Shown in pieces: positions 3,601 through 28,015 of a DNA stretch of 64,000 nt. Positions within the stretch are counted from its first letter, which is position 1. Every line of letters starts with the position of its first letter. The stretch lies in the IMG/VR virus record IMGVR_UViG_3300017991_000062, positions 1-64,000 of that record, one strand, 5' to 3'. The stretch is from a virus. The notes below the pieces were generated by a model, which was not told where the DNA came from, ran no database searches, and worked only from the letters and a program-made list of their open reading frames with translations. The position numbers were made by a program, and so were the translations under genes.

Positions 3601-3629
3601 TTGACAGGAACGCAGGCATGCCCGAGCAT
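3601..3629 (+). promoter_or_regulatory. possible sigma70-like promoter for gat-queC
   Basis: TTGACA-17 nt-GAGCAT (perfect -35, weak -10) upstream of the AAGGAGG RBS. Confidence 0.35.
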
Positions 3630-3648
3630 CGGGCAGCAAGGAGGAGCG

Positions 3649-5142
3649 ATGTGCACACTGGGAGGGTTCGTCAGGACGACAGCGCGGGGCTTCGACTACG
3701 GGATGGTGAAGCGGATCGTGGAAGGCATCGACCTCCGCGGCCGTGACTCCTTCGGCGTGGTGGCCTGGTATGGCAAGCTCGACGGCTTTCGCCGGTACTG
3801 GTTCACGGACAAGGCCGCGCTCATGCCCACCGTCCAGAACATGATTTCGGAGGGTGCGCGGGCGGTGATGCTGGTCGGCCGCGCCATCCCGGCGGCCGAG
3901 CGAGTCGACGGCGTGAACCACGAGCGCGACACGCAGCCCTTCATCGCGGGCGGCATCGCCGTCGCCCACAACGGGCTCATCAGCAACGACGCCGAGCTGC
4001 GCGAGGAGCTGCACCTCTCCGACCTGTCGCCCGTGGATACCGCGGTCCTGCCCTACCTATTCGCGCAGAGCGGCGACTACCTGGAGCAGGTGGAGAAGCT
4101 GGAGGGCTCGTTCGCCCTCGCGGTGCTGGACTCGATGGACGCGAAGCTGCGCCTGGCGACCAACTTCATGCCGCTGTGGATGTACGGTGACGGCGGCTGT
4201 ATCTACTGGGGCTCGGACCAGAGGCAGAGCCCCGACCACCTGGAGCGCGTGCCCTACCACTCGGTCGTCACTATCAACCTCGACACGGGCGAGCAGCACG
4301 AGGCCCGGCTCCTGAACGAGCTGCACCCCGACCGGGTGGTGGTGGTGTGCTCGGGCGGGATGGACAGCTCCACGACGGCCGTGCTCTACAAGGCCCTCGG
4401 CTACGAGGTGGACCTGGTTCACTTCCGCTACGGCCAGCACGCCGAGGAGGTGGAGGAGTGGGCCACGGCCAAGCTCGCCGAGCACCTGGGCGTCCACCGG
4501 GTCAGCCTGGAGATGCGCGACGTGTTCGCCCAGGCCAGCGAGTCGCTCCTGCTCCGAGCCCACGGCCGGATGAGCGAGGAGGAGCGGGCCAAGCTGCGGC
4601 ACCTGGACATGGAGTCGACCATGTCCTACGTCGGCGCCCGCAACCTCGTCTTCAGCTCCATCGCCATGAGCATCGCCGAGTCGGTGGGCGCGGCCACGGT
4701 CGCCCTCGGGCTCAACATCGACGACAGCTCGTATCCCGATAACAACGTCACCTTCCTCGACGAGCTGACCGACGTGGGCAGCGTGGCCCTCAACTGGCAC
4801 AAGCGGGTCCGCATCCGAGCCCCGTTCGTGCACCTCACGAAGAAGGAGATCCTGGAGGTCGCCCTGGCCATCGGGGCGCCACTCGACCTCCACGCCTCCT
4901 GCTACTACCCGGAGTTCGAGGGCGACGGCCTGGCCTACTGCGGGGCGTGCGGCTGCGACAAGCTGCGCGAGTTCTCGTTTCGCGCCCTGGGCCTCATCGA
5001 CCCCGTACCGTATCGCGGTATCCGCGACTGGTCGGGCTGCCAGGACGTGAACGATGCTCGCCCCGACTACCTACGACGACGCAAGCACCTCGCCGTCCTG
5101 CGGCCCGAGCAGGTGCCCTATATCAACTTCATGGTGCTGTAG
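3649..5142 (+). CDS. queC: Gat-QueC: class II glutamine amidotransferase fused to 7-cyano-7-deazaguanine synthase
   Basis: ATG 3649 gives N-terminal Cys2 (MCT); RGRDSFG and AHNG form the GATase; SGGMDS, YGQ, YVGARN, YPDN and SCY...CGACG form QueC. Confidence 0.93.
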   Translation: MCTLGGFVRTTARGFDYGMVKRIVEGIDLRGRDSFGVVAWYGKLDGFRRYWFTDKAALMPTVQNMISEGARAVMLVGRAIPAAERVDGVNHERDTQPFIAGGIAVAHNGLISNDAELREELHLSDLSPVDTAVLPYLFAQSGDYLEQVEKLEGSFALAVLDSMDAKLRLATNFMPLWMYGDGGCIYWGSDQRQSPDHLERVPYHSVVTINLDTGEQHEARLLNELHPDRVVVVCSGGMDSSTTAVLYKALGYEVDLVHFRYGQHAEEVEEWATAKLAEHLGVHRVSLEMRDVFAQASESLLLRAHGRMSEEERAKLRHLDMESTMSYVGARNLVFSSIAMSIAESVGAATVALGLNIDDSSYPDNNVTFLDELTDVGSVALNWHKRVRIRAPFVHLTKKEILEVALAIGAPLDLHASCYYPEFEGDGLAYCGACGCDKLREFSFRALGLIDPVPYRGIRDWSGCQDVNDARPDYLRRRKHLAVLRPEQVPYINFMVL

Positions 5143-5217: not shown

Positions 5218-6117
5218 CTACGCGCAGGCGGTCCAGCTCTTGTCGGCCTGCTGAAGCAGCCGGCCGGCCTTGGCCTCGCGGCGCAGGGCGTCGAAGACGC
5301 GCACGTACTGCCAGGAGCGGGGCTGCGGCTTGAAGGTGGGCAGCACACCCGCGAGGTCCGCGTTCTCCAGGATGCTGTCGAGCACGGCCTTCGCCGGCAT
5401 CGGCTTCTTCTCCAGCATGATTGCCAGCCGGCAGAGGTCGTCCAGCACGTCGCGCTCGGCCTTGGGCAGCGTGACCGCGTTGCCCTTGGGCTTCGGGGCG
5501 GTCTTGGCCGGCGCCTCGTCGGCGGGGGGCGGCGGCGCGACTGCGTCGTCCTTCGCGGTGGCGGCGAGCACGTCCTCGGGGATGTCGCCGAGCGACTCGC
5601 TGTGCTGGTAGGTGGCGAGGAAGACGTAGTCGGTGAAGTTGACGTCCGTCTCGTAGCTCCACACCAGCCCGACAGCCTCCAGCTTGGACAGGGCGCCGTT
5701 GACGGCGAGGGGCTTGCAGCCCAGGGTCTTTGCCACGTCCTCGGCGGTGACGTCGGTGAAGCCGGGCTCGGCGTAGAGGCCGGCGTGGATGGCGTCGTAG
5801 ACGCGGCGGCTGAAGCCCGGCAGGGCGGCGCGGCGTGCGATGACCTCGTCGATGTCCTTCGGGGGCTGCGGGCCGCCGACCGGCACCGGGCCGACCGTGG
5901 CCTCGGGCTCGGGGGCGGCCTCGGCGTCGTGGTCCACGCCGGGGCGGGTGAGCACGTCGTTGATGCAGGGGCCGCCTTCGACCAGGGCGCAGCCGATGTG
6001 CCCTTCGGCGCAGGTGGCCTGATTCAGCTTGCGCTCCGTGCGGCGGATGTACTCGCGGCACTGGCCCACGGTGGCGCTCCCGTCGTCGATCTTGGAAATC
6101 AGTTCGGCGTTCTTCAT
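5218..6117 (-). CDS. hypothetical protein with winged HTH domain
   Basis: VTAEDVAKTLGCKPLAVNGALSKLEAVGLV; GGAGG RBS. Confidence 0.65.
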   Translation of the reverse strand: MKNAELISKIDDGSATVGQCREYIRRTERKLNQATCAEGHIGCALVEGGPCINDVLTRPGVDHDAEAAPEPEATVGPVPVGGPQPPKDIDEVIARRAALPGFSRRVYDAIHAGLYAEPGFTDVTAEDVAKTLGCKPLAVNGALSKLEAVGLVWSYETDVNFTDYVFLATYQHSESLGDIPEDVLAATAKDDAVAPPPPADEAPAKTAPKPKGNAVTLPKAERDVLDDLCRLAIMLEKKPMPAKAVLDSILENADLAGVLPTFKPQPRSWQYVRVFDALRREAKAGRLLQQADKSWTACA

Positions 6118-14148: not shown

Positions 14149-15978
14149 ATGGGCGACAAGGTAACTCGCATCCGGCGCCGGCCTGTCATTGGGTCGTCGA
14201 AGTCTTCCCCCAGTGACGCCTCGTCCAGCTCGGTCGTCAGCCTGACCAAGGGAGCCGGGCCGCGTGCGGTGGTGAAGGCTCTGGTCGTGGAGGCCGACGA
14301 GAAGAAGGTCGACGGGCCGATCTCCCAGGTGATGCCCGACGACCCCTTCCGCGACTTGGTTCACTCGAAGATGGTGCTCGCGCCGCCGCTCGACCCGCGG
14401 CTGCTCACGGTGCTGTGGGAGCAGAACAGCTACCTCGGGCCGTGCATCGCCACGATGGCGGTCAACTGCGAGAGCTTCGGTCACCAGTTCACCCCTCGCA
14501 TCCAGGTCAACGACGAGACGCCGAAGGCTGTGCTGGCCCGCATGGAGGAGGAGAAGCTCCTGCTCGACAACTGGTTCAACAACTGCGTCATCGAGGGCGA
14601 GGACAGCTTCACCGGCCTGCGCATGCGGAAGCGGCAGGACGAGGAGGGTGTCGGATACGCGGCCTGGGAGGTGGTTGAGTTCAACACCGAGGTTCTGGGC
14701 TTCAACTACGTTCCGGCCCACACCGTCCGCTGTACCGGCCTGGACAAGATGCGGGTGCGGGCCTCGCACAAGATGCTGATGCGCCACGAGGACGGGACCT
14801 ACCGCTACATCGAGCGTCCGGTGTGGAAGCGGTTCCGCAAGTTCGTCCAGGTCCGCGGCTCGAAGATGCGGTGGTTCAAGGAGTACGGCGATCCGCGCAC
14901 GATGAACGCCGAGACCGGTGAGTACGTCAGCGGGCCTGGCGCCATCTCGGCCTACAAGAGGGCGAACTCGATCCTCTTCTTTGTGCAAGCCGCGGCCCGC
15001 ACCCCCTACGGTATCCCGCGGTACATCGGCAGCCTGCTCGGCATCTACGGCAGCCGCGCCACCGACGAGATCAACTTCTTCACCTTCGAGTCGAACAACG
15101 TCCCGAGCATGGCGGTCACCGTGTCGAACGGTATGCTCTCGGACGGCAGCGTGGACCGCATTCAGCAGTTCGTGGAGAAGCAGGCTTCCGGCCAGCGCAA
15201 CTATTCCCGCTTCCTCATCCTGGAGGCCGAGCCGGCGACGGACGGCCTGGGCGACCCGGGCCGGGTCGCACTCGACATCCAGCCGCTCACGGACCAGCAA
15301 CGCACCGACGCGATGTTCCTGAAGTACAAAGAGCAGGCCAAGGCCGACGTCCGTGGCGCCTTCCGGCTGCCCGACGTGTTCTTCGGCGAGGCGCCCCAGG
15401 GCGGCGCGGTCGGCGCGATGGAGACGATGCGCAAGCTGACCGACGAGCAGGTGTTCCTCCCCGAGCGCAACACCTTCGATGACCGCATGAATCGCCGCAT
15501 CCTGCCGGCCCTCGGCGTGGTGTACTGGCAGTTCAAGTCGAACACCCCGGAGACGACCGATAACAAGGACCTCATCCGCATCCTCGCGATGGCCGAGAAG
15601 TCGGGCGGCGTGAGCCCGGCCATCGCTCGCGAGATCATGAGCCGCGTCGTCGGTCACGACCTGGGCAAGGTCAAGGGCATCGACCCGGAGGTGCCCTACA
15701 CGCTCCAGGTCGCCCAGGCGCAGAAAACGGGCGGCGACCCGATGTCCACTGCCTCCCAGGCGGGAACCAACTCCCTGCGTCGGATGGGGGCCACTACGCG
15801 GGCAGAACTGGGGCTGGAGGACACTGCGAAGGCTAGCGAGGTCGAGACACCCTGGGAGGGCGAGGCTGTGCTCGCCGGCCTGGGCACGCTGGTCGATAGG
15901 ATCTCGGAGGAGCAGGAGGGGCGCACGGCCAAGGCCAAGGAGGTCAAGCGCGAGCGGCCCACGGTGAGCGGCGAGTAG
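14149..15978 (+). CDS. portal protein (PBSX/XkdE-like)
   Basis: follows TerL; WFKEYGDPR, YGIPRYIG, FESNNVP, AFRLP motifs. Confidence 0.88.
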   Translation: MGDKVTRIRRRPVIGSSKSSPSDASSSSVVSLTKGAGPRAVVKALVVEADEKKVDGPISQVMPDDPFRDLVHSKMVLAPPLDPRLLTVLWEQNSYLGPCIATMAVNCESFGHQFTPRIQVNDETPKAVLARMEEEKLLLDNWFNNCVIEGEDSFTGLRMRKRQDEEGVGYAAWEVVEFNTEVLGFNYVPAHTVRCTGLDKMRVRASHKMLMRHEDGTYRYIERPVWKRFRKFVQVRGSKMRWFKEYGDPRTMNAETGEYVSGPGAISAYKRANSILFFVQAAARTPYGIPRYIGSLLGIYGSRATDEINFFTFESNNVPSMAVTVSNGMLSDGSVDRIQQFVEKQASGQRNYSRFLILEAEPATDGLGDPGRVALDIQPLTDQQRTDAMFLKYKEQAKADVRGAFRLPDVFFGEAPQGGAVGAMETMRKLTDEQVFLPERNTFDDRMNRRILPALGVVYWQFKSNTPETTDNKDLIRILAMAEKSGGVSPAIAREIMSRVVGHDLGKVKGIDPEVPYTLQVAQAQKTGGDPMSTASQAGTNSLRRMGATTRAELGLEDTAKASEVETPWEGEAVLAGLGTLVDRISEEQEGRTAKAKEVKRERPTVSGE

Positions 15979-15985
15979 GCGGGGG

Positions 15986-18900
15986 ATGGCGCTTCCTGTC
16001 CAGACTGACGCGGTGGGCGACCTGCTCCACCGCATGACCGACGAACAGCTCTTCGTCGCCAAGGCGCAGGCACGCGAGGCCCTGGTGCTGGCCAGGGTCA
16101 TCAAGGTGGCCGACGCCTACCTCGCGGTCGAGGAGGACCTGGGCAAGCTGCTCGTCGGCCACTGGGATGACAAGGGCGCCGCGCTGGTGAAGAAGGGAGC
16201 CTCCGAGCTGGCCAAGGCCCAGGAGGGGAAGATCGTCCAGTCGACGCTGTACGAGAACCTCCTGAAGCTGAAGAAGCAGATGGGCAAGGAGTTCGGTGAG
16301 GAGATGCTCCCCCACCTCATCCGATCCTCGCTGCTCGTTTGGTCGATGAGCAGCAAGGAGACGATGGGGCGGCTCCAGCTCAAGTGGTCGACCGACCTGG
16401 TGGACAAGAAGGCTGCGGCGCAGCTCTCGAAGCATCACGCGTACTGGATCGGGAACCACTACAACACCTCCATCTCGGAGTCGCTGCGCCTGGCGACGAA
16501 AGAGGTCATCCTCGACGGCGGGCTGGCCGGCACACAGGCGGCCAAGGCGTACCGCGACATCACGACCGAGTACCTCGCAGGCAAGGGGAAGAAGTACCCC
16601 GGCGTTCCGCCCGGCTTCAAGGGCACGACCGACGACTACTTCGCAGGGGTGTCGAACCACGTCGGGACGCAGGCTAGGGTCTTCAGCCGGATGGAGTCGT
16701 ACCAGCGTGTCGGGATCACGACCTACCGGATCGTCGCGGTGCTGGACAACCGGACGAGCGATGTGTGCCGGATGATGCACGGCCAGACGTTCACCGTCGA
16801 GCAGGGCATGAAGACTGCCGGGGTGTGGACCCAGGGCATCGTCCACCCCGAGGTCGTGAAGAAGCAGGCCGGCTGGATGCGGCCGGCCGACATCGCGAAG
16901 ACGGCTGGCATCGCCTACACCCCGGGGGCTACCTCGCCGAAGATGAGCGCGAAGGGGATCGACGCGCTGGCCGAGAAGGGGCAGGCTCTCCCGCCCTATC
17001 ACTTCCGCTGCCGCACCGACGTCATCAGCTCGGGTGAGTACACCAGCTTCCCCACCGGGAGCGAGCCCAAGACCAAGCCCGTCAAGCCTCCGAAGAAGGA
17101 CCCGCCGAAGCCTCCCCCGGCTGCTCCGACCCCACCCGCGAAAGCGCCAGGCGCTTTCCCGTGGGCGATGACCGACATGACCCCCGTGCAGAAGTCTGCG
17201 AAGGGGATGCACTCGAAGCAGTTCTTCACCGACCCGAACGGCGATGAGTGGATGTTCAAGCCGGCACCGGAGGGGCTCAAGTTCCGCGCCGAGGTGGAGA
17301 AGCTCGCCGCCGATGCGGCCAGGGCTATTGGGGTTGACACGGCCGACGTCTATGTGGTGTCGCACAGGGGCAAGGCTGGCACCATCCAGCGGCTCTTCAA
17401 GGACGTGAAGCACGACGGCCTCGGCAACGTGGGCGTCAACGGCTTGTCGCAGAAGCAGGTCGCCGACCTCCAGCGGCAGCACGTCCTCGACTGGCTCATC
17501 GGGAATAACGACGGCCACCTCGACAACTTCCTGGTCCTGAAGAATGGCAAGCTGGTCGGCATCGACCGAGGGCAGGCGTTCCGATACTTCAAGACGGACA
17601 AGCTCGCCCTGGACTACAACCCGAACGCGAAGTACGGCATTGAGGTCTTCTACAACCGCTTCTTCGCCGCGGCCCGCGACGGCAAGCTACGCAAGGGTGT
17701 CCAGATGCTCGGCATGGACAGCCCCGAGATCCAAGCGCTGCTGAAGCAGGTGGGCAGCGTGAGCGACGACGAGTGGCTTGCCATCTGGAAGCCGTACATC
17801 GACGGCGCCCTGAAGAACCAGCGGCTCGCATACGGCAGCCGCAAGGCGTTCGAGGCCGAGTTGCTGCGGCGGAAGAACGAGCTGGCCGGCGACCTCGGTG
17901 AGTTCTACCGGAAGATTCTGGGCGAGGCTGCCAAGCCTGCGCCCAGGGTGTCGGCCCCGGCCGCGGCCCAGGGCAAGGCCATGACGCCGGTCGACGCGAA
18001 GTTCGTCAAAGCGATGCGCGACTCGAAGAACCGCGGCCGGTCGATCCTGGTGTCCACCGAGCGCGTCGAGAATGGCAACCTGCTCGTTTACACCTACGAC
18101 GACGGGACGGTGGTGGTCGAAGGCAAGCTGCGCGCTGGTGTCGGCGACCGGACAGCGCAGAAGCGGCTCCTCGGTTCGGAAGCCAAGGCCAAGGCGCCAC
18201 CCCCGTCCACCCCGGGCTCCGGGACCGATGGGTACTGGGACGAGGCCCTCACCTACATCAAGCATGTCAACTACCACCTCGGGCCGGGTGGCGACGGTGT
18301 CTTGAGCGGTGCCAAGAACAAGAGCTTCGAGGCGTTCATGGAGCTGCTCGAAGACATCTCCAAGAGCAAGACGGCTACCAGCGCGGAGAAGGCCGCGGCG
18401 AGGTATTACAAGAAGAAGCTCAAAATCTACGGCGACGAGAATGGCGGCTTCTTCACCGAGGAGAAGCTCAAGTCGACGGCCGTGGGGAAGAAGATCGATC
18501 CCTACAAGCCGAAGCCGAAGGCGACCAAGCCCAAGCCGAAAGCGGCGCCAGGCGAGAGCAACGGGATGAGCCCGCGGGTCAAGTCCTCGAAGGTGACCCA
18601 GATGGGCGAGGAGTCCCGGGAGATTGTCGACGGAAGCATCGTCAACCACCACGGCACCATGTCGCCGAGTGCATACGGCGGGAGCCGCGAGATCGACCGG
18701 ATGATCGTGGCCACCCTCGACGACGGCACCGAAATCACCTACATCCCACACGACGGGTACAAACAGGGGCAGGCGTACTCGCGGCAGGGCCGCTTCAGGA
18801 TCAAGGTGAGGGGGAAGGCCGGGAAGCCGGCCAGCAAGGAGCAGGTCGAGCAGGCCGTGGCCGCGCTGGACGACTTGGGCGTCAACACCCGGCTGATGAC

Positions 18901-19687
18901 GAAGCAGGACTTCGAGCTGCTCTACCTACGCAAGAATCAGTTCGCGATGGGGTGGGGCAACGACCAGGTGTTCGCAGGCGTCCCGACGACCGGCGACAAG
19001 GCCGAGCAGATCGAGGCGATGGTCAAGGCGTTCAAGAAGAAGCTCGGCCGCGACCCCCGCAAGATGCCGGGGTACAACCCGAACCCTCACTACTATAGCA
19101 GCGACGGCAACGGCATCGTCCGCTTCCAGCGGTTCGACATCTCGGATGCCGACCTTAAGAAGGCCAACCTCCAATTCGTCTCCGAGGTAACCGGCAGCGA
19201 GGACGCAGCATCGCTCTTGCTCAAGGTCATCGACGGCGAGACCGGCGGCCTCATCGCGACCGAGGAGAAGATCCGGCGCGGCATCCCGATCTCCGGGATG
19301 TCGCCTGTCGCTGACCAGTCGACCGGCGGTGCGCAGTTCGTGTTCACCAGGGCGCGGCGCAAGGCGAGGGTCAGTGGCCGGAACCGAATCGTGATGAGGA
19401 ACGACCTCGCACGCGACACGAACCTGGTGTCTTACAACGGTGACAAGTACGGTCGCATGGACTCGGCATTCAAGGAGCGCAACCGGGCCAAGGATCTGAA
19501 GGGCATCGAGGGACATATCGCGCGCCACGACAACGAGACGCTCTTCAAAAACGAGGTGCCCCTGGAGCAGTGGGACCACATCACCGTTTCGGCCGCGCAG
19601 AAAAAGACTCTGCTCGCAGAGCTGAAGGCGCGTGGTGTCACGCGCATCGCTGGCAAGCCGGTCAACCAGTTCGTACAGGCGAGGTGA
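15986..19687 (+). CDS. MuF (SPP1 gp7-like) minor head protein with kinase-like and additional C-terminal domains
   Basis: MuF: AVLDNRTSDVCRMMHG...PPYHFRCR; kinase: WMFKP...E...DWLIGNNDGHLDN...IDRG. Confidence 0.85.
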   Translation: MALPVQTDAVGDLLHRMTDEQLFVAKAQAREALVLARVIKVADAYLAVEEDLGKLLVGHWDDKGAALVKKGASELAKAQEGKIVQSTLYENLLKLKKQMGKEFGEEMLPHLIRSSLLVWSMSSKETMGRLQLKWSTDLVDKKAAAQLSKHHAYWIGNHYNTSISESLRLATKEVILDGGLAGTQAAKAYRDITTEYLAGKGKKYPGVPPGFKGTTDDYFAGVSNHVGTQARVFSRMESYQRVGITTYRIVAVLDNRTSDVCRMMHGQTFTVEQGMKTAGVWTQGIVHPEVVKKQAGWMRPADIAKTAGIAYTPGATSPKMSAKGIDALAEKGQALPPYHFRCRTDVISSGEYTSFPTGSEPKTKPVKPPKKDPPKPPPAAPTPPAKAPGAFPWAMTDMTPVQKSAKGMHSKQFFTDPNGDEWMFKPAPEGLKFRAEVEKLAADAARAIGVDTADVYVVSHRGKAGTIQRLFKDVKHDGLGNVGVNGLSQKQVADLQRQHVLDWLIGNNDGHLDNFLVLKNGKLVGIDRGQAFRYFKTDKLALDYNPNAKYGIEVFYNRFFAAARDGKLRKGVQMLGMDSPEIQALLKQVGSVSDDEWLAIWKPYIDGALKNQRLAYGSRKAFEAELLRRKNELAGDLGEFYRKILGEAAKPAPRVSAPAAAQGKAMTPVDAKFVKAMRDSKNRGRSILVSTERVENGNLLVYTYDDGTVVVEGKLRAGVGDRTAQKRLLGSEAKAKAPPPSTPGSGTDGYWDEALTYIKHVNYHLGPGGDGVLSGAKNKSFEAFMELLEDISKSKTATSAEKAAARYYKKKLKIYGDENGGFFTEEKLKSTAVGKKIDPYKPKPKATKPKPKAAPGESNGMSPRVKSSKVTQMGEESREIVDGSIVNHHGTMSPSAYGGSREIDRMIVATLDDGTEITYIPHDGYKQGQAYSRQGRFRIKVRGKAGKPASKEQVEQAVAALDDLGVNTRLMTKQDFELLYLRKNQFAMGWGNDQVFAGVPTTGDKAEQIEAMVKAFKKKLGRDPRKMPGYNPNPHYYSSDGNGIVRFQRFDISDADLKKANLQFVSEVTGSEDAASLLLKVIDGETGGLIATEEKIRRGIPISGMSPVADQSTGGAQFVFTRARRKARVSGRNRIVMRNDLARDTNLVSYNGDKYGRMDSAFKERNRAKDLKGIEGHIARHDNETLFKNEVPLEQWDHITVSAAQKKTLLAELKARGVTRIAGKPVNQFVQAR

Positions 19688-19690
19688 GGG

Positions 19691-20119
19691 GTGGGGAGCT
19701 ACACGAGCCGCGGTCGCAAGGTGAAGCCGGATACGGCAGCCGAGCACTTCGAGGAGCTGATGGGCCGCTTCGGTGGCATCATGGTCGAGCCGTTCTACGT
19801 GGGCGACGACGGCACCGAGCAGCCTATCACCGGCCCGACACCCTCGGCGTGGGCCAAGCTCGATCCCGGGCTGAAGCGCCTCGGGTGGTCGTGGGGTTCC
19901 AGCGCTCACCGGGTCGATTGGTTCGAGGCCAGGGTGGACGACGGCGACCTCCTGCTCATCGGCCCGAGCGACAACGAGGGCGAGCGATTGACTGGGGTGC
20001 TCATCTCGGGCATCCTCTTCGACGACGACCAGGCCATCCTGAAGCGGGGGAAGCGGCAGCTCGGGGAAGTGGGGCAAGCCAAGGCCGAGGCCCAGGTCGA
20101 CGAGGTGATGCGTGGCTAG
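19691..20119 (+). CDS. hypothetical protein (candidate MuF immunity/partner)
   Basis: directly downstream of muF; acidic. Confidence 0.5.
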   Translation: MGSYTSRGRKVKPDTAAEHFEELMGRFGGIMVEPFYVGDDGTEQPITGPTPSAWAKLDPGLKRLGWSWGSSAHRVDWFEARVDDGDLLLIGPSDNEGERLTGVLISGILFDDDQAILKRGKRQLGEVGQAKAEAQVDEVMRG

Positions 20120-20471
20120 GAAGTACACCGTCGTCTACCTCCAGCGCATGAACGGCGCCGACGTGTACACCATCGGCGGTTTCGGTTTCGCTGGCGACGA
20201 GGTGGTCATTCTTCCGGCGCCAGGCTTCGAGAACGAAGCTGCCGACTGGAGCCGGCGTCTGACCACGGCCATCCAGCACGGCACATCGCCTCGCGAGTTC
20301 TACGAGGCGTGGGATGAGCGCAACGGGGTCACCTACGGCTTCGGCCCACCCGACAGCGTCAAGGCCGGCAACGTGGTCGAGGCCACCCGGCAGGTGATGG
20401 AGCGCCACCCCGAGATCGGCAGTCAGTTCAACTGGGCCACTGCGCAGGCCCAGGCCCAGGAGGAAAGATGA
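20112..20471 (+). CDS. hypothetical protein (candidate MuF immunity/partner)
   Basis: overlaps the upstream gene; GAGG RBS. Confidence 0.5.
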   Translation: MARKYTVVYLQRMNGADVYTIGGFGFAGDEVVILPAPGFENEAADWSRRLTTAIQHGTSPREFYEAWDERNGVTYGFGPPDSVKAGNVVEATRQVMERHPEIGSQFNWATAQAQAQEER

Positions 20472-20656
20472 GCGAGCGACACCCATCACGGCCGGACCCG
20501 ATGCCCGAGCTGGAAGAGCTGTACCTCGCTGGTCGGCTGACCGAGGCGCAGTTCCAGAAGCGACTCCTTGCCGAGCACACCCTCGAAGGCGCCGACCGGC
20601 TGCGGAAGCGGTGGGCTGCTCGCAAGGCCACCCTGGACAAGGAGGCCCAGTCGTGA
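20468..20656 (+). CDS. small hypothetical protein
   Basis: 4-nt overlaps on both sides. Confidence 0.5.
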   Translation: MSERHPSRPDPMPELEELYLAGRLTEAQFQKRLLAEHTLEGADRLRKRWAARKATLDKEAQS

Positions 20657-21285
20657 AGATCAAGGATGTGAAACCCGCGGTGCTGCGCGAGGTGTCGGAC
20701 AAGGAGCTGCTTTCCCTGCACCTGCGCACTCACCAGCTCTACGGCGCGAACTTCGGGCCGGACGCACCTGCCGGCCGCGGCTACAAGGACGACAAGGGTG
20801 TCGACGCAGTGGATGGGCTGCGGCTCTCCGACGACGGCGCCCTCGCCATCTGGAAGGGCGCTGCGAAGGTGGTGCGGCTGCGCGAGCGCCTGGGCAACTT
20901 CGGGCGGCCGTTCTTCCTCCTGTCGCCGAGCTATGCCTACGGCATCATCCGGCTCGGCAAGCCGCGCAAGGACAGCAACGACTATCCGGTCGAGTACTTC
21001 CGCGGTTTCAAGGTGCCCCTGAAGTACGAGGCGACGGGCGACGGCACCATCCCGCAGAAGGTGGCCATCGTGGGCGAGGAGAAGATGAGCCTGGAGGACC
21101 TGGTTCACGCCCACCTGTTCATCAAGGAGGAGATGGAGCGGCGCAAGCTCGACCACAACCGGGTGAGCGAGCTGGACGACGAGAAGCTGCCCACGGCCAA
21201 GGCCGCCGAGGTGCTCCTGGACCGCGAGCTGACATTCTGGGCTGCCGGTGAGGAAGGCGAGGTGCTCGATGTGGACAGTGCGTAA
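20653..21285 (+). CDS. His-containing helical domain with inserted ASCH/PUA-like segment (putative)
   Basis: SDKELLSLHLRTHQL...HAHLFIKEEMERRKLDH flanking GLRL..ALAIWKG...YGIIRLGKP...FKVPLKY. Confidence 0.5.
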   Translation: MKIKDVKPAVLREVSDKELLSLHLRTHQLYGANFGPDAPAGRGYKDDKGVDAVDGLRLSDDGALAIWKGAAKVVRLRERLGNFGRPFFLLSPSYAYGIIRLGKPRKDSNDYPVEYFRGFKVPLKYEATGDGTIPQKVAIVGEEKMSLEDLVHAHLFIKEEMERRKLDHNRVSELDDEKLPTAKAAEVLLDRELTFWAAGEEGEVLDVDSA

Positions 21286-21649
21286 GGTTGTCGAGTTCGA
21301 TTCCGCTCACCACCTGCCGGACCACCCCGGGAAGTGCAAGCGCCTCCACGGCCATCGCTGGAAGGTCGTGATTGAGGTGGCCGCGGCCGAGCTGGACGGC
21401 GAGGGCATGGTCTGCGACTTCGGCGAGCTGGGCCGCCCCGTCAAGGAGCTGGACCACGCCTACCTCAACGACGTACCCCCATTTGACACGACCCCTCCCA
21501 CGGCCGAGAACCTCGCGAAGTGGGTGGTCGACCAGGTGCGTCCGCTGGTGCCGAACGCCTGCCGGGTGATGGCCACCGTGAGCGAGACGCCGGGCAACGA
21601 TGCCTCGTTCCTGTGGGTGCGCGACTTCTGCGAAGCTGGCCTGCCGTGA
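21269..21649 (+). CDS. queD: 6-carboxytetrahydropterin synthase
   Basis: FDSAHHL, CKRLHGH, DFGEL, LDHAYLND, PTAENLA, SETP. Confidence 0.95.
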   Translation: MWTVRKVVEFDSAHHLPDHPGKCKRLHGHRWKVVIEVAAAELDGEGMVCDFGELGRPVKELDHAYLNDVPPFDTTPPTAENLAKWVVDQVRPLVPNACRVMATVSETPGNDASFLWVRDFCEAGLP

Positions 21650-22254
21650 CCCGGGGCAAGCTCTACCAAGTGGCCGACTGCTTCTACTCGCTCCAGGGCG
21701 AGGGCGGCCGGGCCGGCGCGCCGTCTGTCTTCCTGCGCTTCGCGGGGTGTAACCTGCACTGCACGAAGGCGACGGCCGGCTTCGACTGCGATACCGACCA
21801 TCAGGCGAACCTGCTCCTGCCCCTGGGCGGTGTGGTGCAGGTGGTCAAGGTGGCCGACCTGGGCGACTGCGGGTGGGTGGTGCTGACCGGTGGCGAGCCC
21901 GCGCTTCAGCTCGACACCGAGCTGGTCGAGGCACTCCACGGAGCCGGCTATCGCCTGGCGGTGGAGTCCAACGGCACCCTCTCCCTTCCTGACGGCATCG
22001 ACTGGGTGACGGTGTCGCCCAAGCGAGGCTCGGGGCCGCTCGCCGCCCGCAACGCGACCGAGGTCAAGGTGGTGATGCAGGCCGGCGACCCGCTGCCCGA
22101 GTGCGACATCGAAGCTGACTACTACTACTTGAGCCCGGCCCACGATGGCGACCAGATCGACCAGGCCGCGCTCGATCACTGCGTTCGGCTGTGCCTTGAG
22201 AACCCGAGGTGGAAGCTCTCGACGCAGCAACACAAGGCATGGAGGATCAAATGA
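21646..22254 (+). CDS. queE: 7-carboxy-7-deazaguanine synthase (radical SAM)
   Basis: [19 protein letters not shown]...[26 protein letters not shown]. Confidence 0.95.
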
Positions 22255-22820
22255 CGGGGGAACAGCGGCAGGAGGCCGAGGCGCTGGTGCGGCGGATGCT
22301 GGAGCTGATTGGGGACGACCCAGAGCGACAGGGGCTCAAAGATACCCCGGCGAGGGTGGTGCGGTCGTGGACGGAGCTGTTCGGCGGCTACAGCGAAGAT
22401 CCGGCCGACCTGGTGCGAACCTTTGACACCACCTACGACCAGATCGTCGTCTGCGAGGGCATCGACTACTTCTCCACCTGCGAGCACCACCTGCTCCCGT
22501 TCCACGGCCACGCTCACGTCGCCTACCTGCCCCAGGAGAAAGGTCGCGTGCTCGGGCTGTCGAAGATGGTGCGCATCGTCCAGGTGTACGCCCGGCGGCT
22601 TCAGATCCAAGAGCAGATGACCGAGCAGATCGCCGAGGCGATTCAGTCAGCTATCGACCCCAAGGGTGTCGCCGTGGTGGTCGAGGGGCAGCACCTCTGC
22701 ATGATGGCTCGCGGGGTGAAGCAGGCCCACGCGACGATGAAGACTTCTTGCCTCCTCGGGGCGTTCCGTGATGATATGGCGGCACGAGCCGAGGTGCTGT
22801 CGCTCCTGGGCGTGCGGTAG
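22251..22820 (+). CDS. folE: GTP cyclohydrolase I
   Basis: [38 protein letters not shown]. Confidence 0.97.
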
Positions 22821-22828
22821 GAGGCGTC

Positions 22829-25681
22829 ATGGGCTACGGCGTGAAGGACTTCCACTACTACTTCGCGGTCGACCGAGCCGACTACCGCAAGTTCGGGCAC
22901 CTGCTCCAGGGTGGCGACATTCTGGTCAGCTACGTGTACCTCCGAGAGGCGGCCGACAAGAAAGGCGAGTTCCTCGCGGACGTGAAGGCCCACAAGGGCC
23001 GGGTGATGCTGGACAGCGGCGGCTTCACCAACTTCTTCACGCCTGGCAGCGTCAAGTTCAAAGACTGGGCCGACTTCGTGAAGTCGAACCAGAGCTGGCT
23101 CGATGAGGTGGTGCAGTTCGACGACCTCAAGAGCAGGCGCAAGACGCTCGACTTCTACGACGAGGCCATCAAGCTCGGGCTCGACCCGCTGTTCGTGGAC
23201 CACCTGCGCTTCCACACCGAGAAGGATCGGGCCGGGAAAATCTGGAAGGCCAAGCCCAAGGTCTGCATCGCCGGCTTCGGCAAGGCCAAGCCCGACCAGG
23301 ACAAGAAGAGCCCGGTGTATGACGCGAAGCGGCTGCACGAGGCGTTCGTGCAGGGCCGCGAGGTGAAGACCGTCGTGCACATGCTCGGCGTCGGCAGCAT
23401 CAAGAAGTTCCTCCCGTGGCTCGACGTCATCCACAGCGTCGACTCGGCGAGCTGGGACAAGGCTGCGGCGTTCGGGAAGGTGCTGGTGCTCCAGGCGGAG
23501 GATCTGGGCGACGGTATCAAGATCCCGATCCTGAAGAACTACACCTACCCCGGCAACCCGCGGCGCACCGACCACCCGATCCCGCGCGAGCAGATGGACG
23601 CCGACTGGAACGGGCCGGTGAAGCGGCTCAAGCTCGACAAGTGGTCGGTCACGCAGCGGGCCAAGGGCGTCACCATCTACCACATGAAGCGCTATGTGGA
23701 GGCGGTGCGCAAGCTCGACCCGGTGAAGCTGACGAAGCAGCTCGAAGAGCTGCGCGCGGCCAAGGCCGAGGCGGGCTCGACCAGTTACTTCTTCCTCGGT
23801 GACGACTTCTGGTACGAGCCCGACCCGACGCCCGTGGCCAAGGACGACGGCGAGCAGCTCGACCGCGGCGAGGTCATGGGCCACCTGGAGCAGGCCGGTT
23901 CCTTCGTGGTGGTGCCCGGCTTTGTGTCGCTGGTCGGTTCGACGCTGACAGGCCAGGACGGTGACCCGGCCAAGGACGTCGACCTGCTCGTTCGCGCTGA
24001 CGAGGTGGACCCCAAGGTGGCGGTGAAGCTGGAGCGCCTGTTCCCGCCCGAGATGCAGGGCAAGGTCCACGTCGTCGGCGATGCCCAGGGCCCGAACTGG
24101 AAGCACCTGCCACTCTACGACCTGGTCGCCCGCAAGCGGGAGAAGCTGGTCGCAGTGGAGGTCGATGAGCCCGACTACCAACCCTTCCCGACGCAGCCTG
24201 GCGCTGGACGCCCGAACCTGACCAAGGTGGTGAAGCAGGGCACCGACCTCGACCCTGCCGAAACCGAGCTGACCCGGGAGGAGGCGCGCGAGCTGACGGA
24301 GGCGGTGCAGGGCGACCCCTACCAGGTGGAGCAGAAGGGGAAGCGGAAGTACCGCTTCGTCCTTCAGCACCACTACCGCGGCTTCTGGAGCGAGGACGAG
24401 CGGAAGCAGATCCGGTCGATGCTGCGTCAGGCCCAGGCCGCGGCCAAGGCCGGCGACACGAAGAAGGCCGAGGGGCTGCTCAATGGGGTGTGGTCCGACT
24501 TCAAGCCGGTGCGCCTCAAGTCCGACATCGACGCGGTGAAGACCGCTGCCCAGGCTGCCGAGGATGCGAGCGACGGCAACGTCGGCGCGGCCGTGCGGCG
24601 CAATCTGACCTCCGACGTTCCCGGGCTGGACAAGCTGGCCGGTGTCGAGGGCAGCATCGTCAACCTCGGCAACGTCCACACCGACCTGCGGATGGAGAGT
24701 CCGGCCGGTAAGTGGCTCGTTGGCTGGACGCTGGACACCCCCAAGGTCGCGCTCCAGACGCTCGACGGCAAGGCGCACAACCTGCTCCGCTGCAAGGTGA
24801 TGGACAACCGCGAGGGCGACAACATCGTCGCGCAGCGCAAGCTCGTCCAGCCGGTGTCGTGGCTCACCATCGTCAGCAAGGAGAAGCCCGTCGTGACGAC
24901 GGCGCCAGGCGAGGCCGGCTCGACTGCCGGCACCACTGGTGAGTTCCACTACGTCGACTCGGGCGAGGTCATCTTCGGCGTGCAGAAGACCGACTTCCAC
25001 GAGTACTTCCTCTTCCCCAAGTCGGGCAAGTGGGGCGGCCGGTGGGGCATCCAGATCGTGGAGGGGAAGCCCGACTATGAGAAGGCGCCCGGCGAGTTCT
25101 GGATGGCCAACCGGCCCGCGAAGACGCAGGAGCCGTACATCCAGACCCACGACCGGAAGAAGGAGGAGGCCAAGGCCAAGGAGGACGGGGTCGACGTGGT
25201 GTGGAACCCCGACACCGTGCCTGCGCTGCGGGCTGCCGGCTACAAGCCGCTCAAGGACGAGGTGAAGAAGGACGCGGACGACGTGGTGCGCGTCGCCCTC
25301 CAGGTTCCCATCGCGAAGGTTGCCAAGGAAGAGCGATACGTCATGGGAATCGTGATGGTCCCGGAGGCCACCGACGCCCACGGCGAGAAGGCCACGGCCA
25401 AGGAGATCCGGGAGGCCGCTCACAAATTTCTTGTCAGCGGAGCGAAGATCGGGTATCAACATCAAGAGATCCCAGGTGGCCTAGTACTGCTGGAGAGTTA
25501 CCTTGCCCCGGTCGAATTCAAGCTCGGTAACAAGACCATCCCGAAGGGGACGTGGCTCATGGCCGTGCGGGTCAATAACGATGAGGTCTGGAAAGAGGTC
25601 AAGGCCGGACGCATCACTGGGTTCAGCATCGAGGGCTACGCGAAGAAGGTCCCGCTGAAGCCGAAGCCGAAGGAGAGCTGA
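22829..25681 (+). CDS. polyprotein: TGT/DpdA-like transglycosylase + Pol-beta nucleotidyltransferase + LigD-type 3'-phosphoesterase + XkdF-like prohead protease
   Basis: VMLDSGGF / VHMLG / SVDSASW (aa ~1-297); VSLVGS...KDVDLLVR (aa ~343-445); FVLQHH...HTDLRME...GWTL (aa ~508-775); GIVMVP..DAHGE...H...ESYLAP...GTWL...GFSIEG (aa ~834-950). Confidence 0.8.
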   Translation: MGYGVKDFHYYFAVDRADYRKFGHLLQGGDILVSYVYLREAADKKGEFLADVKAHKGRVMLDSGGFTNFFTPGSVKFKDWADFVKSNQSWLDEVVQFDDLKSRRKTLDFYDEAIKLGLDPLFVDHLRFHTEKDRAGKIWKAKPKVCIAGFGKAKPDQDKKSPVYDAKRLHEAFVQGREVKTVVHMLGVGSIKKFLPWLDVIHSVDSASWDKAAAFGKVLVLQAEDLGDGIKIPILKNYTYPGNPRRTDHPIPREQMDADWNGPVKRLKLDKWSVTQRAKGVTIYHMKRYVEAVRKLDPVKLTKQLEELRAAKAEAGSTSYFFLGDDFWYEPDPTPVAKDDGEQLDRGEVMGHLEQAGSFVVVPGFVSLVGSTLTGQDGDPAKDVDLLVRADEVDPKVAVKLERLFPPEMQGKVHVVGDAQGPNWKHLPLYDLVARKREKLVAVEVDEPDYQPFPTQPGAGRPNLTKVVKQGTDLDPAETELTREEARELTEAVQGDPYQVEQKGKRKYRFVLQHHYRGFWSEDERKQIRSMLRQAQAAAKAGDTKKAEGLLNGVWSDFKPVRLKSDIDAVKTAAQAAEDASDGNVGAAVRRNLTSDVPGLDKLAGVEGSIVNLGNVHTDLRMESPAGKWLVGWTLDTPKVALQTLDGKAHNLLRCKVMDNREGDNIVAQRKLVQPVSWLTIVSKEKPVVTTAPGEAGSTAGTTGEFHYVDSGEVIFGVQKTDFHEYFLFPKSGKWGGRWGIQIVEGKPDYEKAPGEFWMANRPAKTQEPYIQTHDRKKEEAKAKEDGVDVVWNPDTVPALRAAGYKPLKDEVKKDADDVVRVALQVPIAKVAKEERYVMGIVMVPEATDAHGEKATAKEIREAAHKFLVSGAKIGYQHQEIPGGLVLLESYLAPVEFKLGNKTIPKGTWLMAVRVNNDEVWKEVKAGRITGFSIEGYAKKVPLKPKPKES

Positions 25682-25682
25682 C

Positions 25683-26732
25683 GTGTCCGACAAGGAAGCC
25701 CACACAGAACTTCGCGACATCCGGGTCACGAACGTCGACCTGGTGGACCAAGCTGCGAACGAGCAGAGCTTCGAGGTAGTCAAACGGAAGGAGGGCCGTA
25801 GCATGGCCGACAAGACCAAGGTGCGCAAGGACGCGGAGACCGAGGAGGAGCAGGTCGCGGAGGAGGTCGCCAGCGGCGCCGACACCGACACCAGCACCGA
25901 CACCGACACGGACACCGAGGCCGGGGCCGGCGGCGACTCCGATGGTGGGGAGGACAACTCCGAGGGCGACGACGCCACGCCCGTCGAGAAGGCGACCGCC
26001 GCGATGGTGGACCTCGTCGGCAAGCTGGAGGGCGTGCTCGACAGCCTGGTCGACAAGGGCAAGAAGGAGACCAAGGCCGAGGGCGAGGAGGACGAGGAGG
26101 AGACCGGCAAGACCAAGAAGGCCGAGCCCGCGGCGATGGTCAAGGCGTGCCTCGACAAGCTCTCCAAGATGGAGGACCTGCCCGAGGCGGCCAAGAAGCT
26201 CGTCGCCGACGCGGTCGACGCCCTGGCCAAGATGGGCGACGACTACCCCTCGGCCGCCGAGAAGGAGAAGGCCGAGAAGAAGAAGGCCGAGGAGAAGAAG
26301 AAGGCCGAGGGCGAGGACGACGAGGACGGCGAGGTCGCCAAGGCCGGCCGGAAGATCAGCGCCAAGAACGTCAAGGTCCTCCAGGCCGCGGCCGACTCCC
26401 TGGGCAAGGCCACCGAGGCGCTCACCGGCATGCTCAAGGAGGCCAAGGGCGGCGACGACGAGGAGGAGACCGGCAAGACCAAGAAGTCGGCCGACGCCTC
26501 CGACGCCGAGACCGAGGCCCTGGTCAAGCTGACCAAGGCGGCCGACACGCTGGTCGACGGCGTGGGCAAGCTGGCCAAGCGGCTCGACGACATCGAGGCC
26601 GGCGTGGGCATCACCAAGTCGCTCGGCGACGACGAGGGTGACGACACCAAGGTCGAGAAGTCGGGCGTCTGGACCGGCGAGGGGTCGAGCCTGGCGCTCG
26701 TCCCGCCGGGCTTCGGCGGCGCCAAGAAGTAG
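25683..26732 (+). CDS. capsid scaffolding protein with N-terminal protease-like strand
   Basis: acidic coiled-coil protein preceding the MCP; N-terminal VTNVDLVDQAAN; second strong start at 25803. Confidence 0.75.
   Translation: MSDKEAHTELRDIRVTNVDLVDQAANEQSFEVVKRKEGRSMADKTKVRKDAETEEEQVAEEVASGADTDTSTDTDTDTEAGAGGDSDGGEDNSEGDDATPVEKATAAMVDLVGKLEGVLDSLVDKGKKETKAEGEEDEEETGKTKKAEPAAMVKACLDKLSKMEDLPEAAKKLVADAVDALAKMGDDYPSAAEKEKAEKKKAEEKKKAEGEDDEDGEVAKAGRKISAKNVKVLQAAADSLGKATEALTGMLKEAKGGDDEEETGKTKKSADASDAETEALVKLTKAADTLVDGVGKLAKRLDDIEAGVGITKSLGDDEGDDTKVEKSGVWTGEGSSLALVPPGFGGAKK
26091..26486 (+). repeat. 30-nt exact direct repeat (DEEETGKTKK) in the scaffold gene
   Basis: GACGAGGAGGAGACCGGCAAGACCAAGAAG at 26091-26120 and 26457-26486. 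Confidence 0.85.
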
Positions 26733-26809: not shown

Positions 26810-28015
26810 ATGTCCGTACCGAACGAGGAAGTCCTGCGCAAGGCGGTCATCACCACCGATGCCATCACGTCGGCAGGCAAGCTCAACCCCGTCCAGGCGG
26901 ATCGGTTCATCGACTACGTCTGGGACATCACCAAGCTCAAGGGCCACGCGCGCACCGTGAAGTTCCGCGCCGAGGAGCTGTACATCGACAAGGTCGGTGT
27001 CGGCACCCGCGTCGCGGTCCCCAAGGTGGAGGCGGTGGACCCGGGCGTTCGCCGGGGCATCAGCACCTCGCGGGTGACCCTCCACCCCGAGGAGACGATG
27101 TGCCCCTTCGAGGTCTCCTACGAGATGCTCGATGAGAACCTGGAGGGCGAGGCCTTCGCCGAGCACCTCGTGAAGATGTTCGCGACCCAGTACGCGAACG
27201 ACACCGAGGAGCTGTTCATCCAGGGCGACAAGCTCGGCGCGGCCATCCTGGAGTCCGAGTACGTCGCGGGCGGCTCGACCACCCAGTACATCAAGGACGC
27301 CTACCTGGCCCTCCAGGACGGCTGGCTCACCCTGGCCCGGCAGGGCCACGGCGTCGACTTCGCGGGCGCGAACATCTCCAACCGGCTCTTCAGCCGGCTC
27401 ATCAACGCCCTGCCCGAGAAGTTCAAGCGGGACCGCTCCAAGCTGCGCTTCTTCACGAGCACGGACCTGGAGCAGAACTTCCGCGAGAAGACGGCCGCCC
27501 GCGCCACCGGCAAGGGCGACGACGCCCTGATGTCCAGCGCGCCGCTGACCCCCTTCGGCATCCCGCTCATCGGCATCCCGCTCCTCCCCTTCCAGCCGAA
27601 GACGGTGGAGCACCTGACCCTGACCGGCACCACGGCCGTCCCGCTCCTGTACAAGAACGTGACGAACGTGACCGTGCTCCCGAGCACCCTCGACAAGACG
27701 CCGACCACCCCGTACACCGAGGGCGCCGGCAACGACTACATCCTGGACGCGGTCAACGGCACCATCGCGCGTGATGCCGCCTCGACCATCCCGAGCGGTG
27801 CCACGGTCAAGGTCACCTACCAGGCGCAGGCCCAGATCATCCTGACCCACGAGTCGAACTTCATCATCGGCATGGGCCGCGACTCGATCCGCCTGGAGAG
27901 CGACCGCGACATCTTCAAGTCGACCCTCCAGTACTCGCTGACTGCGAAGGTCGCCTGCGAGTTCGAGGAGGCCGACGCCATCGCCTTCGGCTACAACGTC
28001 GGCCTCGGCGTCTAG
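26810..28015 (+). CDS. major capsid protein (HK97 fold) with inserted beta domain
   Basis: GKLNPVQADRFID, LDENLEGE, ELFIQGD, DGWL; position after scaffold; strong RBS. Confidence 0.9.
   Translation: MSVPNEEVLRKAVITTDAITSAGKLNPVQADRFIDYVWDITKLKGHARTVKFRAEELYIDKVGVGTRVAVPKVEAVDPGVRRGISTSRVTLHPEETMCPFEVSYEMLDENLEGEAFAEHLVKMFATQYANDTEELFIQGDKLGAAILESEYVAGGSTTQYIKDAYLALQDGWLTLARQGHGVDFAGANISNRLFSRLINALPEKFKRDRSKLRFFTSTDLEQNFREKTAARATGKGDDALMSSAPLTPFGIPLIGIPLLPFQPKTVEHLTLTGTTAVPLLYKNVTNVTVLPSTLDKTPTTPYTEGAGNDYILDAVNGTIARDAASTIPSGATVKVTYQAQAQIILTHESNFIIGMGRDSIRLESDRDIFKSTLQYSLTAKVACEFEEADAIAFGYNVGLGV

Follow-up and report, generated by a model that had tools for sequence, protein, structure and literature searches.

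Phages such as T4 and P1 load enzymes into their heads: the T4 internal proteins and Alt, and DarB of P1, undergo processing by the head protease and leave the capsid together with the DNA to protect or favor the incoming genome, and DarB is an anti-restriction protein with a DNA methyltransferase domain. The DpdA enzymes of DNA 7-deazaguanine modification fall into five recognized groups, bDpdA and DpdA1 to DpdA4. For phage 9g, Gat-QueC combined with DpdA has been found to yield dG+ in DNA (PMC6884629). Iyer et al. (2017) described polyvalent proteins of phages and conjugative elements, which are predicted to be packaged and delivered with the DNA and in which a head-type (assemblin-like) peptidase is always C-terminal, and stated that transferred DNA is bound by DarA and DarB, which guard it against restriction-modification systems (PMC5512222). 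Here we analyze a window of 64,000 nucleotides, positions 1 to 64,000 of IMG/VR record IMGVR_UViG_3300017991_000062, in which one gene (P0001, 22829..25681, + strand) encodes a polyprotein whose predicted domains are, in order, a DpdA-like DNA-guanine transglycosylase, a Pol-beta-type nucleotidyltransferase, a LigD-type 3'-phosphoesterase and an XkdF-type head-maturation protease. We propose, at a probability of roughly 60%, that this polyprotein is a polyvalent cargo protein anchored to the head protease and that it supplies the phage's DpdA.

The viral record, from an uncultured phage, spans 113,077 bp at 66.8% GC and has a CheckV completeness rating of 100%. The polyprotein is encoded by a single uninterrupted ATG-to-stop open reading frame (ORF) of 950 aa, and its GC content at third codon positions (GC3) of 0.91 is what a real gene in a genome of this composition would show. 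An earlier note, written from the sequence without database searches, had described one unbroken frame with four motif sets and had called TGT/DpdA, Pol-beta nucleotidyltransferase, LigD phosphoesterase and XkdF-type protease domains; all motifs were recovered where it had placed them, and each call agrees with the comparisons given below. The whole polyprotein retrieved nothing useful from PDB sequences and had no match in NCBIfam.

Residues 1-315 (22829..23773, +) are assigned to a DpdA-like DNA-guanine transglycosylase domain by fold, profile and BLASTP matches. The AlphaFold2 (AF2) model has a pLDDT above 90 across residues 10-310, and its top 50 Foldseek matches are all tRNA-guanine transglycosylases (TGTs) at probability 1.00. 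Structural alignment with VIA-align gave Z scores of 18.6 to arcTGT, 16.4 to the DpdA structure 7UI4 and 16.2 to bacterial TGT, against no more than 12.1 for unrelated TIM barrels. When the sequence profile was compared with solved structures, the single significant match was the DpdA of Salmonella Montevideo (7UI4, 1.7e-8), and in this alignment D95, F99, H181, G207, L236 and D256 of 7UI4 fall on D62, F66, H125, G149, L186 and D205 of the polyprotein. In the solved enzyme D95, F99 and D256 are the general acid/base, the gate and the nucleophile, and the remaining residues bind the base (PMC10164549). D62 and F66 sit in the DSGGF motif and D205 in SVDSASW, and the HMLG motif is also present; the earlier note had staked its assignment on a TGT barrel with an aligned pair of catalytic aspartates, and D62 and D205 supply that pair. 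The full set of predicted catalytic or base-binding residues is D62, F66, D98, H125, G149, H184, L186 and D205, in which the equivalence of D98 to the base-recognition residue Asp130 comes from spacing alone. An exhaustive profile search for the domain returned 1790 representative proteins, from which an 80-sequence alignment was built; only D62, S63, D98, H184 and D205 are invariant across it, and H125 is conserved within the protease-fused clade described below, not across all 80 sequences. Pfam has no family for this domain or for ten of its stand-alone relatives, and in PHROGs it matches phrog_887 ('queuine tRNA-ribosyltransferase') at 6e-12. A survey of the whole genome found no further TGT or DpdA-like gene. 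By both sequence and model, this domain is a TGT-fold DpdA and the phage's only DNA-guanine transglycosylase, with a predicted base-exchange activity.

Its closest link among phage enzymes is to DpdA1. The 80-sequence profile finds the experimentally tested DpdA of phage 9g (9g_00003) at 3.3e-65, and a profile built from fused members alone finds it at 3.6e-9, while neither profile has a match at E <=1 in nt-1 (DpdA2), CP220 (DpdA3) or HVTV-1 (DpdA4). Pairwise BLASTP against 9g DpdA gives 8e-7 and aligns H184 with His196 of the 9g protein, a residue missing from DpdA2 (PMC6884629). The zinc site of TGTs and bacterial DpdA, a Cys cluster with a His, is not present, as residues 1-330 hold one Cys (C146); 9g DpdA likewise has no Cys cluster, so the site defines TGT and bDpdA but is no mark of the DpdA1 group of phages. 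Maximum-likelihood phylogeny places the DpdA domains of the fusion proteins in a single clade of 65 sequences (support 0.993), 53 of them with XkdF and the remainder mostly short, probably truncated ORFs, and this clade is separate from 82 stand-alone proteins. Because of this separation we file the fused DpdA, on sequence grounds, as a new protease-fused branch of phage DpdA beside DpdA1.

At the other end of the polyprotein, residues 828-940 (25310..25648, +) match the XkdF family PF14550 (Peptidase_S78_2) at 1.1e-30, with 106.7 bits against a cut-off of 24, and phrog_3017 at 1e-36. The Ser motif is GFSIEG (S933), and D849, S933 and the flanking Gly residues are invariant in 14 XkdF sequences. 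XkdF is present in a single copy in the 113,077-bp genome, in which no S78 (HK97-type) or ClpP protease was found. The domain is thus, as judged from sequence, the phage's only recognized capsid-maturation protease, and its proteolytic activity is predicted. In cultured phages XkdF occupies the same slot, between portal and capsid genes; papers call it putative, and our literature search found no biochemical study of it. Some XkdF proteins are labeled 'DNA methyltransferase' in GenBank (PP551948.2 61343-61801, MN988459.1 92326-92958 and KX456208.1 17716-18768). We considered these as cultured cargo fusions and rejected them, as they are short XkdF-only or XkdF-scaffold proteins; the label is probably an annotation transfer from methyltransferase-XkdF fusions (phrog_1530).

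The joining of these two ends is recurrent. Two full-length relatives of 1374 and 1301 aa, P0002 and P0003, came from a word-based search, as did a DpdA-XkdF protein of 564 aa, and P0002 is 48-63% identical over both halves, across all domain junctions. The exhaustive search extended this to at least 54 proteins with a DpdA domain and a C-terminal XkdF, a count taken almost entirely from the best 150 of the 1790 proteins; nearly all of the 54 are representatives of 50%-identity clusters. They range from 443 aa, with DpdA and XkdF only, to 1780 aa, and between the two ends the nucleotidyltransferase, phosphoesterase, ligase and methyltransferase domains are optional. Phages with the fusion have capsid proteins of either of two different lineages, phrog_1623 or phrog_1005. 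Cultured phages gave little: tblastn of residues 331-824 against 50,697 cultured-phage records had no match, and the DpdA domain matched only three Vibrio phages, at 24% identity. Among the relatives P0007 (1464 aa), P0015 and P0033, one has two tandem DpdA-like domains before XkdF and two combine DpdA with a Dam-like methyltransferase in one polyprotein.

The same slot in related head modules (loci L003-L012 and L013-L017) holds polyproteins of 800-1800 aa with exchanged cargo, namely a D12-class N6-adenine (Dam-like) DNA methyltransferase, usually an ATP-dependent DNA ligase, a phosphoesterase and mostly XkdF; the methyltransferase-type polyproteins are found at L005-L012. To judge from these sequences, the first enzyme is an anti-restriction-type DNA modifier, either a Dam-like methyltransferase or DpdA, in every locus examined. 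We also considered whether the repair domains clean up abasic sites left by failed base exchange, and rejected this as their main reason because they accompany methyltransferase cargo and are absent from many DpdA-XkdF proteins.

Three of the genes required to make a 7-deazaguanine base lie directly upstream of the polyprotein gene. These are queD (6-carboxy-tetrahydropterin synthase, 21248..21649, +; PF01242 at 5.9e-33, phrog_2389), queE (radical-SAM CDG synthase, 21520..22254, +; phrog_2076 at 4.3e-27), whose listed start overlaps queD and whose true start is probably further downstream, and folE (GTP cyclohydrolase I, 22209..22820, +; PF01227 at 9.1e-69), which ends 8 nt before the polyprotein start. 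The same arrangement, with que genes directly upstream of the DpdA-XkdF gene, is found in all eight contigs that have upstream sequence (the window, L001, L002, L004, L023, L024, L041 and L042), so that the earlier note's suggestion to look among metagenomic phages for the same fusion and its co-occurrence with que genes yielded both. A control record of the methyltransferase type has neither FolE nor QueC. The fourth enzyme is a glutamine amidotransferase fused to QueC (Gat-QueC, 3601..5142, +; PF06508 at 2.7e-42, with GATase_6/7). Given that Gat-QueC with DpdA gives dG+ in 9g, we predict by analogy that dG+ is the end product here as well. The pathway is split over two regions: folE, queD, queE and dpdA in the head operon stand about 18 kb from Gat-QueC, which lies upstream of the polyprotein gene and adjoins a sliding-clamp gene (1667-2839) in a manner reminiscent of the dpdA cluster of phage 9g. 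The gap between the MuF gene and queD (19691-21285) has no stand-alone QueC, unlike L001 and L024.

Between DpdA and XkdF, residues 507-746 (24347..25066, +) were identified as a LigD-type 3'-phosphoesterase through their fold. The AF2 model has a mean pLDDT of 78.8, and in Foldseek only 3P4H and 3P43 reach a probability of 0.99 or more. VIA aligned the model to the archaeal enzyme 3P4H with Z 13.1 (rmsd 2.1 A, 110/118 residues) and to the P. aeruginosa LigD phosphoesterase 3N9B with Z 10.5, and the next match falls to Z 4.9. A profile of 13 sequences had no match among PDB sequences even at E 10, so that LigD phosphoesterase was found by the fold search only. In the LigD 3'-phosphoesterase superfamily the site consists of His-His-Asp ligands to Mn and a phosphate-binding Arg (Cko H9, H15, D17 and R19, with Q7; PMC3082917). 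The window equivalents of the Mn ligands and the Arg, assigned by motif order, are H515, H617, D619 and R621; these and Q513 are invariant or nearly so in 16 sequences. In 13 relatives the motif is contiguous, Q-x-H-x6-H-x-D-x-R. In the window, L001 and L003 a helical insert of roughly 90 aa (about residues 520-610, 24386..24658, +; helices at model residues 43-130), absent from the 13 relatives, sets the first His ligand apart from the H-x-D-x-R strand; the earlier note had called this insert as well. Where the second phosphate-binding His of the superfamily and a Tyr four positions after it (Cko H51 and Y55) would be expected the family shows E-[RK]-K ... P..W (K671, W678), and an invariant F-H-E-Y (H724, Y726) follows further on. 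On model and motif together, this segment is a LigD-type 3'-phosphoesterase split by a helical insert, with predicted activity.

Two side observations concern this domain. In the polyproteins of L013, L014, L016 and L017, a second phosphoesterase-like copy of more canonical form (FVLQYHY ... WHYDLRID) lies close to the C-terminus, at about residues 1540-1600, and BLAST found no XkdF match in these proteins. In L023, a 136-aa ORF (5340-5750) directly upstream of the minimal DpdA-XkdF gene has HAD/PNK-phosphatase-like matches (phrog_1238, phrog_505).

The ligase found in relatives has been lost from the window protein. P0002 (63% identical) has it between the nucleotidyltransferase and the phosphoesterase, and no other ATP-dependent ligase was found in the window phage's genome. 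The DpdA-type polyprotein of L004 (9617-12412; P0006) keeps only a short, degenerate ligase remnant at residues 330-505 that Pfam does not see, in which the motif I lysine stands in the context QKRHDG instead of K-x-D-G. This remnant, together with the complete loss in the window, suggests at the sequence level that the ligase decays in DpdA-bearing lineages. In the relatives that retain it, the ligase belongs with the DNA ligases (PF01068), and DNA is also the substrate of the tested enzymes nearest to the N-terminal domain; the tRNA role that the earlier note had entertained for this set of enzymes finds no support.

The third enzyme, residues 336-455 (23834..24193, +), carries the signature of a minimal Pol-beta-type nucleotidyltransferase, hG[GS]-x(9-13)-DhDh (LVGS ... 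DVDLLV), followed by GP ... LYDL, and both elements are conserved in 14 relatives. An Atlas model of the stretch matched PF01909/PF18765 proteins at TM 0.46-0.55, and the homologous domain of the relative P0099 reaches PF01909 at 8e-4 (20.2 bits against a cut-off of 21). The AF2 model of the region (residues 318-460) is poor, with pLDDT below 50-65. We assign the domain to the Pol-beta type on its motif, to which the fold comparisons lend weak support. It is carried by about 14 of roughly 58 fused proteins, and in several relatives it directly abuts the phosphoesterase or stands before the ligase, which is why we place it within a repair unit.

The surrounding genes are those of a head operon. 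The large terminase (12688-14139) is followed by the portal gene (14149-15978), a gene for a MuF protein of 1233 aa with kinase-like matches (15986-19687), three small ORFs of high GC3 (19691-20119, 20112-20471 and 20611-21285) that have no Pfam, PHROG or NCBIfam match, queD, queE and folE, the polyprotein gene, a scaffold gene (25683..26732, +) whose product is acidic, helical and of low complexity, and the major capsid protein gene (26810..28015, +; phrog_1623 at 3e-70). The earlier note had placed the polyprotein gene between MuF and scaffold/major capsid protein; the position stands, and queD, queE and folE, directly upstream, had been left out. Identity of the major capsid protein is 47-73% in loci L001-L012 (47-54% in L003-L012) and about 31% in L013-L017. 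The MuF protein has sub-threshold matches to HipA_C (residues 404-467) and to PI3/PI4-kinase (residues 497-533), and it looks like a second effector-carrying head protein in the operon of the polyprotein.

The scaffold protein has an N-terminal element, (R)E..DL.V.EVSLVDRPAN..FLV.KR.EED.MG.F (residues 10-37, 25710-25793), that is also present in the corresponding ORFs of relatives. Of the 13 downstream ORFs that 14 loci yielded, 12 carry it, the second capsid lineage included (window, L001, L002, L004, L006-L010, L012, L023 and L024). The element matches positions 3-53 of phrog_3017, and in the single-chain protease-scaffold proteins of that family it precedes the XkdF core. From its sequence it may be a docking, activation or cleavage signal for the protease domain; a complex prediction of the XkdF core with the scaffold N-terminus scored 0.60, and one unrelated control scored 0.58. 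Recoding into a polyprotein-scaffold fusion was considered and rejected, as there is no slippery sequence at 25650-25690 and the intergenic spacing and frame vary among relatives.

The mechanism that we propose builds on what the comparisons show: which domains are present, that their catalytic residues are conserved, that the fusion recurs and is linked to que genes, and that the protease and the DpdA are each single-copy. Encapsidation, cleavage, the end product and the time and place at which each enzyme acts are what we infer from this. FolE, QueD, QueE and Gat-QueC would make the 7-deazaguanine base, and DpdA would exchange it for guanines in phage DNA. Since prohead proteases do their work within the procapsid as it assembles, fusion to one should bring the DpdA, nucleotidyltransferase and phosphoesterase domains into that compartment, as the earlier note had reasoned and as the architecture of the family suggests, where the XkdF protease would cut the passenger domains free. 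Most of the base exchange would take place late in infection, by still-free polyprotein acting on replicated DNA, since, on our own rough estimate, some 100 copies inside a capsid are unlikely to cope with a 113-kb genome while it is being packaged. Those copies would accompany the genome in the manner of internal or ejection proteins, in line with what is predicted for polyvalent proteins (PMC5512222). Together, the nucleotidyltransferase and phosphoesterase would heal 3' ends where phage DNA is nicked or broken, and to this healing unit sister phages add an ATP-dependent DNA ligase. The kinase-like effector matches of the MuF protein fit the picture of packaged effectors.

Several points weigh against this proposal. 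Prohead proteases are often degraded and expelled before DNA entry, and the passengers might then never meet DNA in the capsid. After injection into a new cell, DpdA would have scarcely any deazaguanine base to use until the late que genes are expressed, and the copies in a capsid, on the rough estimate used above, seem too few to serve the genome during packaging. Within the repair unit, the nucleotidyltransferase fold is read from weak models, the phosphate-binding His of LigD phosphoesterases seems, from the sequence pattern, to be replaced by Lys (K671), and the healing kit of the window cannot seal nicks alone, because its ligase is lost and the genome has no other ATP-dependent one. Finally, no cultured phage among the 50,697 records carries the fusion.

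A bolder form of the proposal makes the procapsid itself the delivery or reaction compartment. The fusion would then load active DpdA and the healing unit into every capsid, and they would act on the phage genome during packaging or directly after ejection into the next host; in the latter case the enzymes would top up unmodified guanines from the host preQ0 pool and heal 3'-blocked nicks before restriction or exonuclease attack. We regard this form as tentative, and somewhat doubtful.

Expression coupling offers another explanation of the fusion, in which enzymes needed late are merely placed on the strongest late message and act in the cytoplasm. The link to the capsid would then have no cargo function: XkdF or a host protease would free the enzymes, and copies that enter the prohead would be degraded and expelled. 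The que genes themselves lie within the head operon, so that late co-expression is part of the design, and the minimal DpdA-XkdF proteins of 443-650 aa have no repair cargo. Insertion of 7-deazaguanine is moreover post-replicative (PMC10516641) and hence needed late. However, operon membership alone suffices for co-expression without any fusion, and the cargo is always N-terminal, with XkdF always the last domain, in at least 54 clusters. DpdA, Dam-like methyltransferase, ligase, phosphoesterase and nucleotidyltransferase are swapped upstream of this constant XkdF, and the fused clade is monophyletic, its members without a detectable XkdF being few, short and probably truncated ORFs. We therefore consider expression coupling an unlikely sole explanation of the fusion.

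Strict modification in the capsid or at the portal, by a procapsid-tethered DpdA that exchanges guanines during packaging so that exactly the packaged copy is modified, was Model A of the earlier note; in its favor are the attachment of the enzyme to a protein that acts inside the procapsid and the co-transcription of deazaguanine genes with head genes. In E. coli, phage DpdA works without an ATPase partner (PMC6884629), and a lone domain could work if the base diffuses in. The numbers argue otherwise: by our own estimate, about 100 copies working at a TGT-typical turnover for the minutes of packaging would fall short of the approximately 75,000 G in 113 kb. In addition, base flipping in densely packed DNA is unlikely, and by the time DNA moves in, head proteases have normally emptied the capsid. 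We hold this scheme to be improbable.

A different substrate is conceivable for the TGT-like domain, which could deazaguanylate a protein, either the neighboring nucleotidyltransferase or a capsid protein, in the way that Cap10 modifies the CD-NTase of type IV CBASS. The Cap10-CdnD complex 9NTN is among the five top structural matches (VIA Z 15.7), and a Pol-beta nucleotidyltransferase that adjoins a TGT-like domain, along with a QueC-family enzyme, recalls Cap9/Cap10/CdnD (bioRxiv 10.1101/2025.04.06.647259). But the nearest characterized relatives in sequence, 9g DpdA and 7UI4, are DNA enzymes; the two catalytic Asp residues known from the DNA and tRNA enzymes are intact; the gene comes with a full FolE-QueD-QueE-QueC pathway, as in DNA-modifying phages, with the que linkage found on every contig that could show it (8/8); and just one in four or so of the fused proteins has a nucleotidyltransferase, which together make a protein substrate very improbable. 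That the ORF is an assembly chimera or a read-through artifact, for which nothing was found beyond the metagenome-assembled source, is scarcely credible and, for the chimera that the earlier note had named as a risk, excluded by the recurrence of the collinear architecture in at least 54 representative proteins and on many independent contigs from different samples, with P0002 identity spanning the junctions.

Several consequences follow. DpdA gains a sixth, large branch, invisible to Pfam, of at least 54 clusters at 50% identity and defined by fusion to a head protease, and the new profile finds DpdA genes that current annotation misses. The time and place of phage 7-deazaguanine insertion become experimentally approachable, since the whereabouts of the enzyme can be tracked along with the capsid. 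In one widespread head module, the position of the protease is a site at which anti-restriction DNA modifiers (a Dam-like methyltransferase or DpdA) and LigD-like repair domains are exchanged, which hints at a general means of loading enzymes into capsids that might be reused for protein packaging. Were the procapsid indeed the compartment of delivery or reaction, the polyprotein would provide the first case of a base-exchange enzyme among virion proteins, XkdF would be a general cargo-loading handle, and the scaffold EVSLVDRPAN element may be its docking or activation partner.

Compared with the DpdA1 of phage 9g (PMC6884629), the window domain is homologous and shares the DSG-F, H-x-G-x-G and S/C-DS-SW motifs, with His196 corresponding to H184. 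FolE, QueD, QueE and Gat-QueC are present in both phages, so that the predicted product, dG+, is the same. The 9g enzyme, at 317 aa, is stand-alone and encoded beside polymerase and clamp genes, in keeping with the earlier note's statement that phage DpdA is normally a separate gene near replication genes, whereas the window domain is about 22% identical to it, belongs to a separate clade and is fused to three more domains that end in the head protease. In the window, folE, queD and queE have shifted to the head operon as well, and Gat-QueC has kept its place by the clamp gene.

The repair portion resembles LigD and the stand-alone archaeal phosphoesterases (PMC3082917) in its eight-stranded beta-barrel fold and its Q-x-H ... 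H-x-D-x-R metal and phosphate site, and it resembles LigD further in that a single chain of the relatives unites phosphoesterase, ATP-dependent DNA ligase and a nucleotide-adding domain. The nucleotide-adding domain here is of a predicted minimal Pol-beta type, in contrast to the primase-type polymerase of LigD. No Ku was seen, the window barrel is split by the 90-aa insert, the second phosphate-binding His is apparently a Lys and the ligase is lost.

With the T4 internal proteins, Alt and DarB, the polyprotein would share, if its packaging is as we infer, the carriage of enzymes in the head. Those proteins differ in that they are targeted by short capsid-targeting peptides or by partners, not by covalent fusion to the protease, and none of them is known to be a base-exchange enzyme.

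A precedent is that of the polyvalent proteins (PMC5512222), which likewise unite several unrelated enzymes in one polypeptide of variable domain content among virion genes; DNA methylases are common cargo there, and the window relatives carry a Dam-like methyltransferase. The earlier note had known of no described system with this architecture. With regard to DpdA this stands, as the DpdA papers searched (PMC6884629, PMC10516641 and PMC10164549) mention no fusion to virion proteins, but polyvalent proteins with a C-terminal head peptidase had already been described. The main text of that description does not name XkdF, the LigD phosphoesterase or a transglycosylase of the TGT/DpdA type, and the transglycosylases it does name are peptidoglycan-cleaving lytic enzymes. 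The carriers described there are mostly MuF or portal fusions; in the present case the carrier is the maturation protease and the cargo a hypermodification enzyme. The general idea was thus sketched by Iyer et al. (2017), and the DpdA version of a protease-anchored polyvalent protein is new.

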